A stretch of 64,000 nt of DNA from Candidatus Levyibacteriota bacterium (GTDB lineage: Bacteria; Patescibacteriota; Microgenomatia; Levybacterales; UBA12049), in contig JBDRBE010000001.1 in NCBI GenBank assembly GCA_043823085.1, forward strand, positions 47,267-111,266. The letters run 5' to 3'. Positions 4,497 to 24,840 of this stretch are shown one piece after another (the stretch's first letter is position 1; each line of letters begins with the position of its first letter). The position numbers were made by a program, and so were the translations under genes. The notes beneath the pieces are model-generated. The model searched no databases. It saw nothing but the letters and a program-made list of their open reading frames with translations, and was not told where the DNA came from.

Positions 4497-5393
4497 TTAC
4501 GCATTTGAATTATTAACAATAAAATCTCCTGTCGCTTTTCCCAAACGCAATCCCTGCCTATCAACCTGCTTGTGGTCGCCAGATAATAGAGACATACGTT
4601 GAATTTTTTCTCTTATAACTAATGTTAAATTAGAGCCAAAATAAAAAGCAGTATTAAGAATTCCTACTTGTATTGGGTATTGTTTTTTTACCAGCGTAAA
4701 AATCATTCCTGCAGAGAATTGTGCCCACCAATGATATGCATCGCCCAAGGGATCCCTTACGTCGCTCATGGAAAAATCCGCGGTACTTCTAGCAATAGTC
4801 ATCATTGTAATAGGATCAGCCTCTGACTCTACCTTAAAAAGAAGTTTTTCACTTAGTCTCGTATCGCATAAACGCGCTACAGCTCGATAAGAAGCATGCG
4901 CAAGTAACGCAGCAGCAACGGGATTATTGTCTGTTTGCCTTAATGCAATATCAAATTGATCAACTACTGTTAATTGTCTTCCCATGGTTTGAGCTTGCTC
5001 TCTTACCGAATGTAAAAAATCAAAGATCTTCTCAATTGGGAAAAATTCAGATACTGTTTTTTTTCCATGATCATTTGAAAACGCAATAAGCGATGCTGTT
5101 AGTCGAGAAATCTTAATCCTCTTACTGTCCCATGGATTTATTAATAAATCGTTTACTGTATATTCTTTTTGCGAAATTACCCTAGTGATTCTCGAAAAAA
5201 GTTCATTTTTTATGACTGCCTCTTTAGGATTTTTAAAATAACAAGGCTCTTGTTTCATTTTATCTATATACACTCCAACGCCAGACGATAAATTCTCTGG
5301 TTTTGTGGCTGCTCCCAATGCTGCATCACTTAATACTTTTATATCTTCTATAAATGTTGGCAACGATCGCCCTGAATTAGCCTCTTTAGACAT
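4497..5393 (-). CDS. hypothetical protein
   Basis: 298-aa uninterrupted ORF. No motif recognised. Confidence 0.4.
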   Translation of the reverse strand: MSKEANSGRSLPTFIEDIKVLSDAALGAATKPENLSSGVGVYIDKMKQEPCYFKNPKEAVIKNELFSRITRVISQKEYTVNDLLINPWDSKRIKISRLTASLIAFSNDHGKKTVSEFFPIEKIFDFLHSVREQAQTMGRQLTVVDQFDIALRQTDNNPVAAALLAHASYRAVARLCDTRLSEKLLFKVESEADPITMMTIARSTADFSMSDVRDPLGDAYHWWAQFSAGMIFTLVKKQYPIQVGILNTAFYFGSNLTLVIREKIQRMSLLSGDHKQVDRQGLRLGKATGDFIVNNSNA

Positions 5394-16914: not shown

Positions 16915-19632
16915 TTATCTAATTTGGGGATAATGACATTTTTTCCACTTTTTCTTACTTCCGCACCAACAAGGATCGTTGCGGCCCAATTTTCTGCTCT
17001 GTGCATCCGAATTCCTACTTTCCGAATTCCCATTCGACATGTGGGAAGCTGATTTTTTTACATCCGTTTTAATCGACGGTTGTTGTGGCGCAACTTGTAC
17101 TGAAATTTTATAAATTCTGTGGACGATCTGGTCATCAATTGCCGACATTAATTGTTCGAACATTGTAAAAGCTTCATTTTTATATTCTACCAATGGATCG
17201 CGTTGACCATAGCCCCGAAGTCCGATTCCCTGACGAAGATTTTCTATAGCATCTAAGTGATCCATCCATAAATTATCAATAACCGAAAGCATCACAAACC
17301 GCTCAATTTGTCTTGTTAAATCGCTACCCATTTGCTCTTCTCTTTTTTGATAAATATCCAAAGAAACTTTTGAAAGAAAATTTATTTTTTCATCCGTTTC
17401 TAATAACTGCTCAAGTTGTTTTGCAAGTTGTTTTTGCGATAATTCGTCAAATGGAATAATGGTTGAAAATTCTTCAACAATTTTTTCGTCAGGTAATTTA
17501 TCTACCTCATAATTTTGTACGCTATTAACATTAACAATTGCCGAAATAATATTGTTAATTTTATTAAATATTTCCTCTTTTAGTGAATTTTGCTCTGATG
17601 CTTTTTCGTCCAAAGGACGATCAGCCCTTGGCTGAGATACCTCTAGTACTTTTCTTCTTGCTTTGTAAATTATTTCTCTTTGTTTGTTTAAGACATCGTC
17701 ATATTGAACTAAATGCTTTCTAATGTCAAAATTAAATCCCTCGACTTTAATTTGCGCCTGTTCTATCGCTCTTGACACAACCGGATGTTGTAAGGGTACG
17801 TCTTCTGGCATATTAAATCTTGTCATTAAACCGGCAATTCTGTCTCCGCCAAAAAGTCTCATAATCTCATCGTCTAACCCAACAAAAAATCTTGAAACTC
17901 CGGGATCTCCCTGACGGCCGGAGCGGCCCCTTAACTGATTATCAATTCTTCTCGACTCATGACGCTCTGTTCCAATAACATAAAGTCCTCCTAAATCCAC
18001 AACCTCCTTGTGTTTTTTTTCCCATTGTTCCCACTCCTTTGTTCCTCTTTTTTCCCTGCCATCCTCAAATTTTGGACTATCACCGCCCAAAATAATATCA
18101 ACACCACGACCTGCCATATTAGTTGCAACTGTGACTGCTCCCTTAACGCCTGCCATCGCCAAAATTTCTGCTTCTCTTTCGTGATTTTTAGCATTCAAAA
18201 CCTCATGTTTTATTCCACGTCTTCGTAACAACTCGGAAATAATTTCATTTTTATCAATAGCTGTTGTTCCAACTAATATTGGTTGTCCAATTTTATGCGC
18301 TTCTTCTATTTCGAGAGCCACTGCAGATAATTTTGCCCGTCCTGTTTTATAAACCGCGTCGGAATTATCAACTCTTATCATTTTTTTATTAGTCGGAACA
18401 ACAACAACATTAAGTTTATAAATTCTATGAAATTCCTCCGCTTCTGTAAGTGCAGTTCCGGTCATTCCCGCCAGTTTCTCATACATTCTAAAATAATTTT
18501 GTAAAGAAACCGTTGCTAAAGTTTTTGATTCCCGTTGTATCGGTACTCCTTCTTTTGCTTCTATTGCTTGATGAAGTCCTTCAGAAAGTCTTCGTCCTAT
18601 CATCAAACGACCGGTAAATTCATCGACTAAAATTACCTGATTATCTTTGACAATGTAATCTTTTTCTTTTTGGAAAAGAGTTCTTGCTTTTAGCGCTGCT
18701 TCTAAATGATAAACCGTATCAAAGTCTCTTTCATAAATGTTGGTAACACCATACATTTTTTCAATTTTTGCAATCCCATGATCGGTTAAATGAGCTGTCC
18801 GTAATTTTTCATCAACTTTGTAATCAATACTTGACGTTAACTTATCAACTAATTTTGAATATTCATAATATTTTTCCGATGGTTCGCTTTGCGGCGCGGA
18901 AATAATATGGGGAGTCCTTGCTTCATCAATCAAAACCGAATCAACTTCATCAACTATGGCAAAATTATGTCCTGTTTGAACAACCTCGGGAATACTTTGA
19001 GCCATATTATCTCTTAGATAATCAAAGCCAAATTCCGAATTAATGCCATAAATAACATTTGCCTGATAAGCTTCTTTTCTTGTAATTGGTCTTAAATGAA
19101 CTAGTCTAAAATCTGTTGTATCTTTATTGTGGAACGACGGATCAAAAATAAAAGATTGATCGGAAATAATTGAAGAAACAGAAATTCCCAAAAGATTAAA
19201 AATAGACCCCATCCAACCGCAATCTCGTCTTGCCAAATAATCGTTAACTGTCACCAAATGAACACTTTTGCCAGTTAAGCTGTTAAGATATAATGCTGGA
19301 ACTGCCGACAAGGTTTTTCCTTCTCCTGTTTTTTGTTCTGCAATTTTTCCCTGCGAAAGAACAATCGCCGCCATTAGCTGTACATCAAAATGTCTTTGAC
19401 CCAAAGTTCGTCTGGCCGCTTCTCTTACAAGTGCAAAAGTCTCCGGGAGTATTAAGTCTAAAGATTCTCCGTTTTCAATTCTTTTACGAAAATCTTCTGT
19501 TTTTTTTAGAAAATCTTTTTCTTTTAATTTTAAAGTTTCTTTCTCAAAAGAATTTATTTCTAAAACAATGGGTTTTAATTTATTTATTTCTTTTTCGTTA
19601 TTACTAAATATTTTATTTAAAAAAGAAAACAT
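16915..19632 (-). CDS. secA: preprotein translocase ATPase SecA
   Basis: 905 aa. DEAD-like motor domains. C-terminal zinc-binding tail CWCGSKKKWKKCH. Confidence 0.95.
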   Translation of the reverse strand: MFSFLNKIFSNNEKEINKLKPIVLEINSFEKETLKLKEKDFLKKTEDFRKRIENGESLDLILPETFALVREAARRTLGQRHFDVQLMAAIVLSQGKIAEQKTGEGKTLSAVPALYLNSLTGKSVHLVTVNDYLARRDCGWMGSIFNLLGISVSSIISDQSFIFDPSFHNKDTTDFRLVHLRPITRKEAYQANVIYGINSEFGFDYLRDNMAQSIPEVVQTGHNFAIVDEVDSVLIDEARTPHIISAPQSEPSEKYYEYSKLVDKLTSSIDYKVDEKLRTAHLTDHGIAKIEKMYGVTNIYERDFDTVYHLEAALKARTLFQKEKDYIVKDNQVILVDEFTGRLMIGRRLSEGLHQAIEAKEGVPIQRESKTLATVSLQNYFRMYEKLAGMTGTALTEAEEFHRIYKLNVVVVPTNKKMIRVDNSDAVYKTGRAKLSAVALEIEEAHKIGQPILVGTTAIDKNEIISELLRRRGIKHEVLNAKNHEREAEILAMAGVKGAVTVATNMAGRGVDIILGGDSPKFEDGREKRGTKEWEQWEKKHKEVVDLGGLYVIGTERHESRRIDNQLRGRSGRQGDPGVSRFFVGLDDEIMRLFGGDRIAGLMTRFNMPEDVPLQHPVVSRAIEQAQIKVEGFNFDIRKHLVQYDDVLNKQREIIYKARRKVLEVSQPRADRPLDEKASEQNSLKEEIFNKINNIISAIVNVNSVQNYEVDKLPDEKIVEEFSTIIPFDELSQKQLAKQLEQLLETDEKINFLSKVSLDIYQKREEQMGSDLTRQIERFVMLSVIDNLWMDHLDAIENLRQGIGLRGYGQRDPLVEYKNEAFTMFEQLMSAIDDQIVHRIYKISVQVAPQQPSIKTDVKKSASHMSNGNSESRNSDAQSRKLGRNDPCWCGSKKKWKKCHYPQIR

Positions 19633-19662
19633 GATGTTTATATTTTACCATAATTGAGTTTT

Positions 19663-19694
19663 AAAAAATCCCCCCGATGTTAATTCGGGGGGAT
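19663..19694 (-). terminator. rho-independent terminator / attenuator hairpin 35 nt upstream of the secA ATG
   Basis: Minus-strand reading: CCCCCCGAattaacaTCGGGGGG (8-bp GC stem), followed by a 6-nt T-run. Confidence 0.6.
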
Positions 19695-19745
19695 ACCAAT
19701 TGATCAATTGGTAACAATTAATCCGTTGTTAACGGAATTACCAAT

Positions 19746-19775
19746 TTATCTCTTCTTCTTTTTTTTCTTTGCCAT
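19746..19775 (-). CDS. tiny lysine-rich upstream ORF, MAKKKKKKR* (candidate leader peptide)
   Basis: ATG GCA AAG AAA AAA AAG AAG AAG AGA TAA, preceded 11 nt upstream by GGGAGGAGGTGA, the strongest SD-like sequence in the region. Too short to call by length statistics. Confidence 0.25.
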   Translation of the reverse strand: MAKKKKKKR

Positions 19776-20026
19776 GGTATAAATCACCTCCTCCCGTCTC
19801 CGCTCTTTTTAGCAGATCCGAGAGTTATTCTCGGGCAGCTTTAGCAGAATTAATTTAATGTTGTAATAATTTTTATATTTTGTCAAGATTTTTTCTTTGC
19901 TTCAAAACTAGTCGTTTAGATTGACAGCTGGGCAAAAATCACAGAGGCTATTTTTTCATTTTTTATTATAATTTTATTACAAAAATTAAAAATTTAAAAT
20001 TGAAAATTAAAAATTAAATGAAGAAT

Positions 20027-21265
20027 TTATTTTTTGATGTTGATTTCTGAAAATCCTGTATATTTTTGCAGAACTTCAGGAATTAAAACACTTCCATCTT
20101 TCTGTTGATAATTTTCTAAAATTGCAATAATTGTTCTTGATGTTGCAATTGCTGTTCCATTTATCATATGAATAAACCCTGTCGTTCCATTTTTCTGTTT
20201 AAAACGTATATTTAAATTTCTCGCCTGATAATCTGTACAATTTGAAGTTGAAGTTATCTCTCCATATTCTTTACGTCCCGGCATCCATGCTTCAACGTCA
20301 AATTTTCTTGCCGCCATTGCCCCTAAATCACCGCTGCACATTTCCACAACTCTATATGGAATTTCTAAATTTTGATAAATTTTTTCTTCTAAAGATAAAA
20401 GCCATTGATGCATCTTTTCCGAATCTTGCGGAAGACAATAAATAAATATTTCTGCTTTTGTAAATTGATGAACGCGAAATAAACCTCGAGAATATTTTCC
20501 ATAAGCCCCTGCTTCTTTACGAAAACAGTGAGAATATCCAACATATTTTAATGGCAATTTATCTTCTGGAATAACTTCATCTGCATGTTTACCAGCTAAA
20601 GCAACTTCTGCAGTTGCAATAAGTCCTAAGTCCTCATCTTTTATTTCATAGATTTGTGCTTCATTCCCTTTTGGGAGATAACCAGTACCAAGATAATATC
20701 TTGACTTTGCTAAATCAGGAGTGATAACCGGAATAAAACCTTCTTGACGCAATAAATCAAAAGCGTATTGAATTAATGCCAGCTCTAAAATCGCTCCTTC
20801 ATTATAAAGAAAATAAAATTGCGACCCTGAAACTTTAGCTCCGGTTTCAAAATCAAACAGATTAAGAAGCGCTCCTAATTCTACATGATCTTTTTGTTGG
20901 AAATCATTTTTTTTTATCTCTCCCCATTTTCTTAATTCAACATTTTCTTTTTCATTTTTTCCAACCGGAACGCTGGACAAAGGCAAATTTGGAATTTTTA
21001 ACATCCATTCTTTTAATTCTTCCTCAACCGCTTTTAATGCATTTTCTTCTTTTTCCAGCTTATCTTTTAACTCTTTTCCTTTTTCAATATTTTTCTCTTT
21101 AGCAAATTTATTTCTTTCTTCTCTTAATTTTTGGACAGATAATGAAAGTTCATGATATTTTTTATCAATTTCTAAAATGTGATTGACGTCAATATCAATA
21201 TTCTTACTCTTTGCAGCTTTCTGAACAACTTGCGGATTTTCTCTTAGTAACTTTACGTCTATCAT
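20027..21265 (-). CDS. serS: seryl-tRNA synthetase
   Basis: 412 aa. N-terminal coiled-coil arm and the class II core (motifs 2 and 3, GYSHCFRKEAG, GTAIATSRTI). Confidence 0.95.
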   Translation of the reverse strand: MIDVKLLRENPQVVQKAAKSKNIDIDVNHILEIDKKYHELSLSVQKLREERNKFAKEKNIEKGKELKDKLEKEENALKAVEEELKEWMLKIPNLPLSSVPVGKNEKENVELRKWGEIKKNDFQQKDHVELGALLNLFDFETGAKVSGSQFYFLYNEGAILELALIQYAFDLLRQEGFIPVITPDLAKSRYYLGTGYLPKGNEAQIYEIKDEDLGLIATAEVALAGKHADEVIPEDKLPLKYVGYSHCFRKEAGAYGKYSRGLFRVHQFTKAEIFIYCLPQDSEKMHQWLLSLEEKIYQNLEIPYRVVEMCSGDLGAMAARKFDVEAWMPGRKEYGEITSTSNCTDYQARNLNIRFKQKNGTTGFIHMINGTAIATSRTIIAILENYQQKDGSVLIPEVLQKYTGFSEINIKK

Positions 21266-21976: not shown

Positions 21977-24256
21977 TTATGCAGTTTCTACTCCAAATAA
22001 ATCAATTTTTCCGCCGCAATATTTAATAATAATATTACACGCTTCTTGTAAGACTTTTTCTACCATAAAAGGTGCAATATCATAAACTCCATCAACATTT
22101 ATATATAAATTTTTTGTTTTTACCTCTACTGCAGTTCTTTTTGCATCGCGATAGTTAAAATCCATATTATATCCGCCAATTTTATCAAAATATGCAATTT
22201 CTGTTTCTCTATATACTGTTGGTTTTGCGTCTCCTAAAAGTAAAATTTCTTCATCGTTTTTTGCAAATCTTAAAACGGTTGGAAATTCTATTTTATCGAG
22301 ATCAAATGCGCCAACCGAAATATGATGCTTCATTACAATTAAATTGTATGCATCTACGCAAGTATTGATATTATATAAACCCTTATTTAATGCAACTCTT
22401 CGCAAAAGCGCCTCGGGGCTTGGACGCCTTGAATGCCAATCAACTTTCATTTCTTTATATAATCTTCTGTAACTTATAATCTCCGGATATTGACCAAGTT
22501 TCTCTGTTGTTAATCCATTAAGCGAAGAAAGCAATTCTTCTTTTTCTTTTTCCAAACCCTCATTTGATTTTTCAATACTGACGCCTTTTATAATTGCTAT
22601 ACCAATTGAAATCGAAGGAAACCTATTTTTTAGCTCTTTACTAATTGAAAAGACCTTTAGATTATTAAATATTTTCAACGAATCTTTTTTCTCATCACTA
22701 CTTAAATGATATATATCATTTAAGTAAATATCCTTGAATCTTTTTTGGACGAATTTTTTATCCAGAGATAAAATTAACCAGCCAGCTTTAGGACCGTGAT
22801 CTTTACCGATTAATGAAAGATAAATTGCAGAGAATGCTTCTTTTGAAGAAACTTCTAATTCCTTTGCTAATTCATAAAGATTTTTTTGAAAATCTTGGGC
22901 GGTCCATTTTTTATCAAGTTCCAATGAAACTTTTTCCAAAAACTTTTTTTGTTTATCGGATAAACTCTTTGCAGTTTTGGGTATAGTTTTACTGACAGAA
23001 AATTTTTCCGATTCCGGAGCAAATTTTTCAACCCAAATTCTTGCATATTTTGCCCATTCTTGGAGTCCTTTTTTTTTAATCACGTCTTCCATATTCGGCA
23101 TCTGTATCCATTGGGCAAGAACTGAAAAACGAATTTTTGGCGGTTTTTTAAACTTGTCTATTTGGGATAATTCAAAAGTCCTTGCCAAATCATTATCGCC
23201 CTTATTAAAATATGCCTCTGCAGCTTTTTGATATTCATCTAATAAATTTGGAATTGCTAATGTACCAACCGGATTGAATTCTATCGCTTTTTTATAATCA
23301 GTTTTCGCAAATAAAAATCTTGCAATTTCTGGCGGTAAAAGATCAGTTAATTCTCTAGCTTTTAAACCCAAACCTTTTGAAGTACCCATTTTTTTACCGC
23401 CAATAAGAAAAAATTCATAAGGAAGATTAAAAGGATTTGGATAATTAAAAATTTCTTTGCATAATTCTTTTGCAATATCTCTTGAACCGCCGGCCGATGA
23501 ATGATCTTTTCCTGCACCCTCAATTGTCACTCCCAATACCTTCCAATGCGCCGGCCAATCAACTTTCCAAGGTAATTTTCCATTCCCGTCAAACGGACTA
23601 ATTTTCCCCGAGTATCCGCATCCTTTTGCCCATTTAACCATTTCCGGTTCACAAATATAGGAAACTTCCCTGCCGTCCCATTTGTAAACGCGAGTTGTGC
23701 CAATTTTTCCGCAATGCTGGCAAATGACTTGCAAAGGAAGCCATCCTTTTTCTTTTTTCTTGCTTCCCGAAACTTTTTGATAAATATCTTGAATTTTATC
23801 TGCATTATCTAAAGCAATTCTTACAACCTCATTGAATTTACCTTGATGATACATATCCCACGATGATAAAAATTGCGCTGAAACTCCTAAATCTCTTAAA
23901 ACTTTTTGGAAATCTTTGGCAAAATAATCGGCAAAACTTGAATAGCCTTTTTCGGGAGATGGAGCACTGCGAAGAGGAATACCAAGATATTTCTCGAAAC
24001 TTGATAAGTCTTGCGGCAATCCATCAATAGGATCAAAATCATTAAAAATGTATGTCCATTTAACCTCTTTTCCGGCATCTTTAATAGACCTAAATAATAT
24101 GTCATGAATCAGAGGCCCTCGCAACGAACCGACTGTTGCATAACCCGATGGAGTAAACATATCATCTACCCAATAATGTTTATGATTTCCAGATGAAATT
24201 ATTTCTTTGGTAACTTTATCCGCCCAAAACATATACTCGAATTGATTATAATACAT
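21977..24256 (-). CDS. lysS: class I lysyl-tRNA synthetase fused to a C-terminal B3/4 (PheT-like) tRNA-binding domain
   Basis: N-terminus WADKV...TPSGYATVGSLRG (degenerate HIGH), a Cys-rich insertion with the LPWKVDWPAHW motif, and a KMSKS-like GKKMGTSKG. The C-terminal roughly 230 aa carry VDAYNLIVMKHHISVGAFDLDKI, matching the B3/4 signature VDxTNYVMLExGQPLHAFDLDKI. Confidence 0.8.
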   Translation of the reverse strand: MYYNQFEYMFWADKVTKEIISSGNHKHYWVDDMFTPSGYATVGSLRGPLIHDILFRSIKDAGKEVKWTYIFNDFDPIDGLPQDLSSFEKYLGIPLRSAPSPEKGYSSFADYFAKDFQKVLRDLGVSAQFLSSWDMYHQGKFNEVVRIALDNADKIQDIYQKVSGSKKKEKGWLPLQVICQHCGKIGTTRVYKWDGREVSYICEPEMVKWAKGCGYSGKISPFDGNGKLPWKVDWPAHWKVLGVTIEGAGKDHSSAGGSRDIAKELCKEIFNYPNPFNLPYEFFLIGGKKMGTSKGLGLKARELTDLLPPEIARFLFAKTDYKKAIEFNPVGTLAIPNLLDEYQKAAEAYFNKGDNDLARTFELSQIDKFKKPPKIRFSVLAQWIQMPNMEDVIKKKGLQEWAKYARIWVEKFAPESEKFSVSKTIPKTAKSLSDKQKKFLEKVSLELDKKWTAQDFQKNLYELAKELEVSSKEAFSAIYLSLIGKDHGPKAGWLILSLDKKFVQKRFKDIYLNDIYHLSSDEKKDSLKIFNNLKVFSISKELKNRFPSISIGIAIIKGVSIEKSNEGLEKEKEELLSSLNGLTTEKLGQYPEIISYRRLYKEMKVDWHSRRPSPEALLRRVALNKGLYNINTCVDAYNLIVMKHHISVGAFDLDKIEFPTVLRFAKNDEEILLLGDAKPTVYRETEIAYFDKIGGYNMDFNYRDAKRTAVEVKTKNLYINVDGVYDIAPFMVEKVLQEACNIIIKYCGGKIDLFGVETA

Positions 24257-24283: not shown

Positions 24284-24757
24284 TTACTTTACTTCAACAA
24301 CCGTGTAGACGATTTCGCCGGCTGGGGCTTCGACTTTAACTTTTTCTCCAACTCCTTTTCCCATTAATGCTTTACCAAGAGGTGATTCGTGAGAAATTTT
24401 TTTCTCCATTGGATCTGCTTCCCATTCTCCAACAACCATAAAGATTTCTTTTTTACCGTTAACATGAAGTGTTACTTGCGAACCGAGTTTTACAATCCCT
24501 TTGCCATTTCCTTTAGAACTTCCGTGAATTAAACTTACCTGTTTTAGAAGCTCTTCTAATTCATCAATCCTGCCATCTATAAACGAGAGCTCTTCCCTTG
24601 CTGCGACATATTCCGCGTTTTCAGATAAATCTCCTAAATTTCTAGCTTGAGAAACTCTCGAAAGGACATCCGGTCTTTTTACGTTGGCCAGCTCATCATG
24701 CTCTTTTTTGAGTTCGGCCAACCCTTCTTTTGTTAGATAAATTTTTTTGTCGTTCAT
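24284..24757 (-). CDS. greA: transcription elongation factor GreA
   Basis: MNDKKIYLTKEGLAELKKEHDEL...GDLSENAEY is the GreA N-terminal coiled-coil plus FKBP-like C-domain. The listed ORF starts at an upstream TTG, and the ATG at 24757 is the likely start. Confidence 0.9.
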   Translation of the reverse strand: MNDKKIYLTKEGLAELKKEHDELANVKRPDVLSRVSQARNLGDLSENAEYVAAREELSFIDGRIDELEELLKQVSLIHGSSKGNGKGIVKLGSQVTLHVNGKKEIFMVVGEWEADPMEKKISHESPLGKALMGKGVGEKVKVEAPAGEIVYTVVEVK

Positions 24758-24765
24758 ATGTTTCC

Positions 24766-24794
24766 AAAAAAAACCCTCATTTAATACTGAGGGG
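24766..24794 (-). terminator. rho-independent terminator after the nucleotidyltransferase-like gene, 9 nt upstream of greA
   Basis: Minus strand: CCCTCAgtattaaaTGAGGG followed by T8. Confidence 0.5.
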
Positions 24795-24840
24795 AACAAT
24801 TACTTAGCAGGGAGATATTATCAATAAACTCGCCTTCTTG

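Follow-up and report, generated by a model that had tools for sequence, protein, structure and literature searches.

In the trp, his, leu, thr, and pheA attenuators of Proteobacteria, a short open reading frame (ORF) led by a Shine-Dalgarno sequence (SD) carries a run of codons for one amino acid; in the trp type, a hairpin that follows the ORF (1:2) shares an arm with an alternative hairpin (2:3), and a terminator comes next. Counterparts of all these parts are found between serS and secA in the 64,000-nt stretch of DNA analyzed here (the window), which its SecA relatives assign to “Candidatus Levybacteria” (Microgenomates, candidate phyla radiation [CPR]). The ORF encodes little other than lysine, and its position recalls SecM-secA, MifM-yidC2, and VemP-secDF2, in which a small ORF also lies directly 5′ of an export gene. 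A further likeness is to the mycobacterial polycysteine small ORFs (sORFs) of the “Cys ribulon” (bioRxiv 10.1101/834739), which are near-homopolymeric tiny ORFs of a leaderless-rich organism and in which, as would hold here, the position of the ribosome remodels a downstream RNA duplex. The unit works partly like these systems and is a member of none of them; it is real, undescribed, and restricted to Levybacteria.

Each of these systems differs from the unit in parts that matter for its mode of action. The leader ORF and the terminator of the trp/his-type attenuators are present, but an antiterminator, a dependence on read-through, and a metabolic link are not: the 2:3 equivalent (hairpin P2) is clear of the terminator, the downstream secA has its own predicted promoter and no link to lysine, and the codon run favors the synonymous codon that is rare in the genome. 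The SecM, MifM, and VemP peptides are 95 to 170 aa long, carry an export signal and an arrest motif, and unmask a downstream ribosome-binding site (RBS), whereas the peptide of the unit is basic, 9 to 19 aa long, and devoid of a signal or transmembrane segment, secA has no SD, and the hairpins lie 5′ of the terminator. Dual-function small RNAs (sRNAs) such as SgrS/SgrT, RNAIII/hld, and SR1/SR1P likewise combine a short terminated transcript (here a predicted one) and a small peptide with conserved structured noncoding parts, but the peptide of the unit is much smaller and low in complexity. Ribosomes contain very small polybasic proteins, namely eL41 (25 aa), mycobacterial bL37 (24 aa) and bS22 (33 aa), and Thermus Thx (26 aa). 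Like the unit peptide, these are extremely short and almost purely K/R, and some start with MAK(R/K); unlike them, the unit is not in a ribosomal context and occurs in one CPR lineage only, and the likeness is one of size and composition alone. A description of bS22 is available (PMC10081302). The mycobacterial polycysteine sORF is itself leaderless and shares a transcript with the 3′ gene, whose RBS is hidden in the duplex (bioRxiv 10.1101/834739); in contrast, the poly-Lys sORF is led by an SD, a strong terminator intervenes, the 3′ gene is a predicted leaderless one with no metabolic link to lysine, and RBS sequestration is not seen, the hairpins using only segments beyond the stop codon and the 3′ gene having no RBS. 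Lysine poly(A)-track attenuators (PMC4363877, PMC4552401) likewise contain Lys codon runs that are read in frame, but these work via consecutive AAA, whereas the unit is dominated by AAG and looks selected to avoid that effect.

Positions given here are those of the window, and serS, the unit, and secA are all on the minus strand. The order serS (20027..21265, identified by Pfam; stop codon 20027-20029), unit, secA (16915..19632, Pfam SecA domains) is fixed, and the unit lies in the spacer between the two genes. The SD, ORF, hairpin, palindrome, and terminator that a first-pass annotation had reported in this spacer are all located on the minus strand where it placed them. The SD, GGAGGTGA within GGGAGGAGGTGA (19784..19791), stands 8 nt 5′ of the ATG of the mini-ORF, ATG GCA AAG AAA AAA AAG AAG AAG AGA TAA (19746..19775), which encodes MAKKKKKKR and a stop. 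The SD sequence GGAGGTGA is found a single time when the two strands of the 64 kb are scanned (128 kb in total), the mini-ORF is the only K/R-rich short ORF with an SD in the window, and the 18-nt core of the palindrome downstream of it is unique in the window, shuffled sequences yielding 0.17 matches with three mismatches permitted. These features are not due to chance. Paralogous copies of the unit were considered and rejected, the palindrome, the SD 8-mer, and the K/R-rich sORF with an SD each being single in the window.

The comparison covers 46 loci: 18 complete loci anchored on SecA, 26 found through the palindrome, 1 partial locus (SecA anchored and truncated inside the unit), and the window. 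The SecA-anchored loci are independent of the search pattern, comprising 13 genome loci and 5 fetched without reference to the element. The 26 pattern-found loci come from an exact-pattern palindrome scan of metagenomes that returned 120 DNA stretches with 128 strand-oriented matches. A K-rich frame is borne by 30 of the 128 matches, all 30 of which lie directly 5′ of a secA start, and removal of duplicates and one false positive from these 30 leaves the 26 loci. Levybacteria SecA clusters themselves number 120 or more in a protein search. The unit is present in every one of the 18 complete SecA-anchored loci with a SecA identity of at least 68%; serS lies 5′ of it in 39/39 and secA 3′ of it in 37/37 loci with enough sequence, and among the loci sampled it was never met away from secA. 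Relatives thus show strong conservation of the uORF and its SD, as well as of the terminator and the alternative pairing, a check that the first-pass annotation had proposed.

Lineages of lower SecA identity lack the unit. L013, L015, L016, and L018 have other genes 5′ of secA; in L020 and L030, serS and secA are adjacent without the unit; and L017 keeps a promoter and a terminator but has neither the Lys frame nor the palindrome. This distribution indicates that the unit originated between serS and secA in the ancestor of the Levybacteria and was passed on vertically from there. In L002, the C terminus of an insertion sequence (IS)-type transposase (…WYNYQRPHASLRYMSPMTF…*; L002:1-168) ends 45 nt 5′ of an intact secA extended −10. 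Since the L002 contig starts at the IS element, either the unit is not beside secA in this metagenome-assembled genome or the assembly broke at the IS. Against Rfam, the whole window gave one tRNA only at the gathering threshold, and the unit region at an E value of ≤10 gave sub-threshold matches driven by the terminator only; a full-text literature search found no description of an oligolysine unit. The serS-secA spacer of L020 (Shapirobacteria; ∼2240-2380) holds one long imperfect hairpin with CAATTACCAAT/ATTGGTAATTG that abuts the secA extended −10. This hairpin, which carries TTACCAAT, was considered as a homologue of the unit and rejected: the shared 8-mer is not significant, because such an 8-mer occurs about 10 times per 64 kb.

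The mini-ORF exists in 36 distinct nucleotide versions at 41 loci, encoding 24 distinct peptides of 9 to 19 aa, all of which start with M-A/G-K-K. These 24 peptides contain 172 K, 33 A, 24 R, a few T/V/S/G/H, and no D or E, and the longer variants resemble real basic peptides (e.g., MAAKKKAKKAKKAKKK and MAKKTVKRKVAKRKTKSRK). Length changes by whole codons only, and an in-frame stop falls exactly at the end of the purine run in 40/41 loci, the exception (L125) lacking 1 nt that is present in a locus nearly identical to it in all other respects. Counts of purine-only codons are 171 for AAG, 85 for AAA, 28 for AGA, 2 for GGA, and 0 for GAA, GAG, AGG, and GGG, such that G occupies codon position 3 or 2 and almost never position 1. 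This three-base periodicity means that a pure polypurine constraint on the RNA does not account for the frame. Position-2 transitions (Lys to Arg) are tolerated, whereas position-1 transitions (Lys to Glu) were never found; 28 AGA versus 0 GAA plus GAG corresponds to a binomial p of 7e-9, uncorrected for phylogeny. The pattern indicates that the mini-ORF is under selection for coding and for positive charge.

Codon choice within the Lys run is also biased. AAG makes up 67% of mini-ORF Lys codons, compared to 16% in the ribosomal protein genes of the window (Fisher p = 4e-43), and this bias is not optimal-codon usage. The AAG excess splits the A-runs, which are mostly 4 to 6 nt long, so the design of the mini-ORF appears to favor frame maintenance. 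In Escherichia coli, it is iterated AAA, not AAG, that makes ribosomes slide (PMC4363877), and the suggestion of the first-pass annotation that the Lys run acts as a slippery or sliding sensor is not borne out by a run biased away from AAA. Frameshift read-through into the terminator was likewise rejected, as the +1 and −1 frames mostly close in the region of the first hairpin and neither is consistently open. In the loci with the module, the SD follows the consensus G(G/A)(A/G/T)GGTG(A/G) at 5 to 10 nt 5′ of the ATG, and behind it the mini-ORF carries 6 to 12 Lys/Arg codons.

The sequence that follows the stop codon can form two hairpins, P1 and P2, that compete for one arm. Segment 1 (AATTGGTAA; 19738..19746) begins in or beside the stop codon and is the 5′ arm of P1; it pairs with segment 2 (TTACCAATT; 19706..19714), the shared arm, whose other partner is segment 3 (19701-19694). 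P2 is the perfect palindrome TACCAATTGATCAATTGGTA (19694..19713), made up of segment 2, a GATC loop, and segment 3; the first-pass annotation had recognized it but gave its length as 16 nt, whereas it is 20 nt. The earlier remark that AATTGG after the stop can pair with the 5′ half of this palindrome describes P1, and compensatory changes back it. The first of the palindromes listed earlier, CCGTTaacAACGG (19723..19735), forms the apical extension of P1.

Covariation indicates that P1 is a real RNA structure. Segments 1 and 2 are 99% paired (12 distinct sequences), two apical pairs covary (GC to GU to AU and CG to UA), the covariation score was reached by 0/500 shuffles, and in slid registers pairing drops to 11 to 55%. 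At other loci, the apex is a G+C-rich covarying helix (CCGCC/GGCGG, CCGTC/GACGG, CCGTT/AACGG, or CCCGC/GCGGG) or is swapped for the loop (A/T)ATTTGGA, and the bulged base varies among A, T, and G. The gap between the stop codon and segment 1 is 0 to 2 nt in 36/41 loci. The palindrome is invariant in the SecA-anchored loci except for single-base differences in L007 and L162, and its sole internal variation is U-A versus U·G; in L162, the closest relative, an A-to-G change in segment 2 keeps a U·G wobble with both partners. The invariance of segment 2 is explained by the fact that P1 and P2 both constrain the same arm.

P1 is more stable than P2 in 43/43 loci (mean, −12.1 versus −6.8 kcal/mol). 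Constrained folding of 38 loci, in which the ORF and 10 nt past the stop were masked to mimic a terminating ribosome, gave P1 plus the terminator for free RNA and P2 plus the terminator for ribosome-masked RNA in essentially all loci. The terminator of the window (19663..19694) has a 10-bp G+C-rich stem and a 7-nt loop (stem-loop, 19694-19668) followed by T6 (19668-19663). A terminator is present in every locus, its stems covarying freely, with a mean stability of −19.1 kcal/mol and a median U-run of 6 (range, 4 to 9). P2 and the terminator are adjacent and overlap by at most about 1 bp, and neither the folds nor the aligned sequences revealed any other conserved element competing for the terminator arms. 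The T run ends 30 nt before the secA ATG, slightly closer than the ∼35 nt first reported, and the hairpin stands about 330 to 360 nt past the serS stop, as first reported.

Several other pairings were examined and rejected. In the aligned sequences, the 5′ arm of the terminator could sequester the SD with at most 5 bp, and this holds for no loci but those in which the arm is CCCTCACC. For a second mini-ORF (UUG AUC AGU UGG UAA after the loop GGAG), several loci, including the window, have neither the stop nor the GGAG. Segment 2 could also pair with GGTAAA (Gly-Lys) near the start of the secA coding region, but the loci do not share this pairing. Mimicry of tRNA-Lys or of a D-loop by segment 3, suggested by a resemblance to E. 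coli tRNA, is considered weak.

Two promoters of different types are predicted at the locus. That of the unit is of the σ70 type (19858..19886), with a −35 TTGACA (19886-19881), a 17-nt spacer, and a weak −10 CAACAT (19863-19858). The −35 is invariant in 35/35 aligned loci, the 17-nt spacer is A/T rich, and the −10 keeps A2 and T6 (CACGAT/CAACAT/CAAGAT); CTTGACAAA occurs once in the window. The 5′ untranslated region (UTR) that would follow (19776..19857, from the alignment, with a putative start) varies between loci in length (about 25 to about 150 nt) and structure. In one subclade, the element AACCTGCTC(A)CTTTC(A/G)GTTTGGGAAAGAT follows the unit promoter (L010:2585-2615, L019:2685-2710, and, without the Lys ORF, L017:2740-2770); neither the element nor these variant loci match Rfam, even at permissive E values. 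Upstream of the promoter, the 35-locus alignment contains three conserved boxes (19898..19942), GTGATTTTTGC (19942-19932), CAATCTAAAC (19923-19914), and TTTTGAAGCA (19907-19898), which may be UP-like elements or a factor site or may belong to the serS 3′ UTR. A regulon sharing these boxes was rejected, since within the window they occur together only at the serS-secA locus.

The promoter of the unit depends on a −35, unlike the extended −10 promoters of leaderless genes. The predicted secA promoter is an extended −10, TGGTAAAAT (19642..19650), 9 nt 5′ of the ATG (19632), and the pattern TGnTAnnAT lies 6 to 9 nt 5′ of the secA ATG in 34/35 loci and is also present in sister lineages without the unit. 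First-in-operon genes of the window commonly have TAnnnT, often TGnTAnnAT, 6 to 10 nt 5′ of the ATG and no SD (among others, the ATGs at 5393, 14769, 16798, 25758, 27206, and 33415 on the minus strand, 34541 on the plus strand, and 37978 and 39531 on the minus strand), and SDs are mostly on operon-internal genes. This Levybacteria genome thus seems to use leaderless mRNAs by default. As this geometry is common to many genes of the window, the secA mRNA is predicted to be leaderless too and to come from an extended −10 promoter of its own, which would explain the lack of an SD that the first-pass annotation had noticed and that we confirm. No terminator belonging to serS itself is evident 5′ of the unit, and the terminator of the unit therefore probably also ends serS transcripts.

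Taken as a leader-peptide attenuator of secA, as the first-pass annotation had suggested, the unit lacks an antiterminator. The terminator forms both in free RNA and in RNA masked by a ribosome, which excludes classical antitermination at the 38 loci folded, and secA has a predicted promoter of its own; these two points speak against the unit as a classical attenuator of secA. A SecM-like monitor was also rejected, because a peptide of 9 to 19 aa that is purely basic, and in which hydrophobic and export segments are lacking, is unable to engage the export machinery. More generally, a leader ORF with hairpins and a terminator should not be read as an attenuator before an antiterminator and a downstream promoter have been checked for.

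We tentatively favor, at somewhat less than even chances, an interpretation in which the unit is an autonomous, highly expressed oligolysine/arginine micro-gene with a 3′ toggle between P1 and P2 and a terminator that insulates the leaderless secA promoter. The −35-dependent promoter would drive a short RNA of about 130 to 250 nt, and the strongest SD of the window would load ribosomes onto the ORF of 9 to 19 codons. As P1 starts at the stop codon, every terminating ribosome must melt it, which would free the shared arm for the weaker P2; without ribosomes, the RNA would relax to P1 and leave segment 3 single stranded before the terminator. The pairings and their energetics come from alignment and folding, and the ribosome-driven toggle itself is what we infer from them. 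The terminator would fire in both states and so insulate secA, which would be transcribed separately as a leaderless mRNA from the adjoining extended −10. The likely purpose would be an abundant, genetically encoded polycationic micropeptide, and the toggle may tie the lifetime or usability of the mRNA to its translation, e.g., through exposure of the idle segment 3 linker to RNases. The transcription starts, the operation of the toggle in vivo, its effect on mRNA stability, and the function of the peptide are putative in this scheme.

A more specific version is possible but doubtful, namely, that the unit is a stand-alone gene whose oligolysine peptide (AKKKKKKK after removal of Met) is a polycation, either bound to ribosomes or nucleic acid like eL41 and bL37 or serving as a polyamine surrogate. 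If true, this would be the shortest conserved bacterial protein-coding gene known with its own promoter and terminator, and the P1/P2 toggle would be a new way to tie the fate of an mRNA to ribosome traffic.

Of the other explanations, the one that survives best is that the unit is a cis-regulator of secA, translation of the poly-Lys ORF reporting Lys-tRNA supply or translation capacity and modulating secA through leaky read-through, occlusion of the secA promoter, or re-use of the terminated polymerase at the extended −10. The layout is leader-like (a codon-run ORF, P1 as a possible pause hairpin, the P1/P2 alternatives, and a terminator), the stop abuts P1 in 36/41 loci, the unit is never found away from secA, and homopolymeric sensory sORFs are known from the mycobacterial polycysteine case (bioRxiv 10.1101/834739). 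Moreover, the U-tract of the terminator ends 4 nt (9 loci) or 13 to 17 nt (17 loci) from the secA −10 (overall, 4 to 20 nt), two spacings roughly one helical turn apart, and the DNA is shared; because the U-tract adjoins the −10, polymerases from the upstream promoter would terminate inside the secA promoter, and occlusion, leaky read-through, and polymerase re-use are all conceivable. We nevertheless regard such a role as unlikely. Nothing competes with the strong terminator, secA has no RBS to unmask and is unconnected to lysine metabolism, its predicted leaderless promoter is also present in lineages without the unit, L002 keeps that promoter with an IS element directly 5′, and the AAG bias argues against designed stalling or sliding. 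Synteny is weak evidence for a cis link, because the adjacency of serS and secA is older than the unit (L020 and L030) and because a breakpoint between the terminator and secA would destroy the secA promoter; the linkage can be plain inheritance, locked in by the overlap of the terminator with that promoter.

A dual-function sRNA is decidedly less probable. In this scheme, the terminated transcript would act in trans via segment 3 (UGAUCAGUUGGUAA), and translation of the ORF, by forming P2, would switch the seed off. A 5′ hairpin, a single-stranded linker, and a terminator are the typical architecture of base-pairing sRNAs, and segment 3 is invariant and exposed in the minimum-free-energy fold, but the 64 kb contain no convincing target, the sole near-match (17294-17311; 3 mismatches) being inside the secA coding region, and the loci do not share a complementarity to the 5′ region of secA. 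The three-way pairing constraint sufficiently explains the invariance of segments 1 to 3, and L007 and L128 would sequester the seed permanently. Finally, the palindrome and an extra half-site could be a DNA operator through which a dimeric transcription factor acts on the unit or on the secA promoter, with incidental RNA pairing. This idea can draw on a perfect 18- to 20-bp palindrome 5′ of the secA promoter that is invariant rather than covarying and on the half-site duplications in L007 and L128, but it is very improbable, given that the palindrome stands anywhere between about 40 and >150 bp from the secA −10, that the third half-site lies at a variable distance with covarying hairpins inserted between, which is sensible only for RNA, and that the only substitutions in the palindrome are transitions that keep a U·G wobble on the transcribed strand.

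Several points weigh against the micro-gene interpretation itself. The loci are phylogenetically related, so that the p values overstate their independence, and part of the lack of Glu codons could be due not to selection for charge but to a need to avoid SD-like AAGGAG/AAGGAA within the ORF. No established stand-alone protein of bacteria is known to be as short as 9 residues, and such a peptide might simply be degraded. P2 shows no compensatory change; because it is invariant, and because 26 loci were ascertained through the palindrome, covariation neither supports nor refutes it. In L007 and L128, segment 2 is duplicated, such that P1 and P2 can coexist. L014, L127, and L164 have an extra small hairpin between the stop and P1, which differs in sequence among them, is followed by a second TAA plus ATTGG, and looks like an insertion with duplication of the TAA. 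In L010 and L019, which encode 19-residue peptides, segment 1 is replaced by TTGATCAAT, which pairs with the center of the palindrome, and the predicted dependence of P2 on the ribosome is reversed. As these lineages break parts of the toggle, the toggle may not be the selected property; constant across the variants are a hairpin starting at the stop, a palindrome with some upstream competitor, and the terminator. Both promoters are predictions from sequence, and the unvarying position beside secA and the closeness of the U-tract hint at a cis relationship that the interpretation leaves unused.

Conservation of the unit extends over a CPR lineage of the rank of an order or phylum; at 9 codons, its ORF is invisible to gene callers, and the unit is not in Rfam. 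It combines peptide-level selection on a homopolymeric basic frame with the strongest RBS of the region and may, as a candidate, represent either an oligolysine micropeptide with a function or a ribosome traffic sensor of a new class. The predominance in Levybacteria of apparently leaderless first genes with an extended −10 matters for the annotation of CPR genomes.

A class I (archaeal-type) lysyl-tRNA synthetase with a C-terminal B3/4 domain is encoded two genes 5′ of the poly-Lys ORF (21977-24256, minus strand). No regulatory link between this gene and the unit was found, and the synthetase gene is upstream, not downstream. In sister Microgenomates without the unit, a small spermine/spermidine synthase-like methyltransferase (PF01564) is encoded directly 5′ of the leaderless-type secA (L013:2352-2993, L015:2332-2973, and L016:2331-2993) or one gene further 5′ (L018:∼917-1489); no homologue was found in the window or the fetched Levybacteria loci. 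A polyamine-type enzyme thus occupies the position at which Levybacteria encode a polycationic peptide, a coincidence of interest for the idea of a polyamine surrogate. The sequence TAGCCTC(A/G)AA recurs in Levybacteria in promoter spacers and just after terminators (window 19944-19950, minus strand, and L001, L009, L019, L085, L147, and L157). Finally, a terminator-like hairpin with T8 on the minus strand (24757-24800) ends only 8 nt 5′ of the ATG called for the gene at 24757-24283, and no −10 lies between them; the start of this gene may be miscalled, or the arrangement may be an unusual one.

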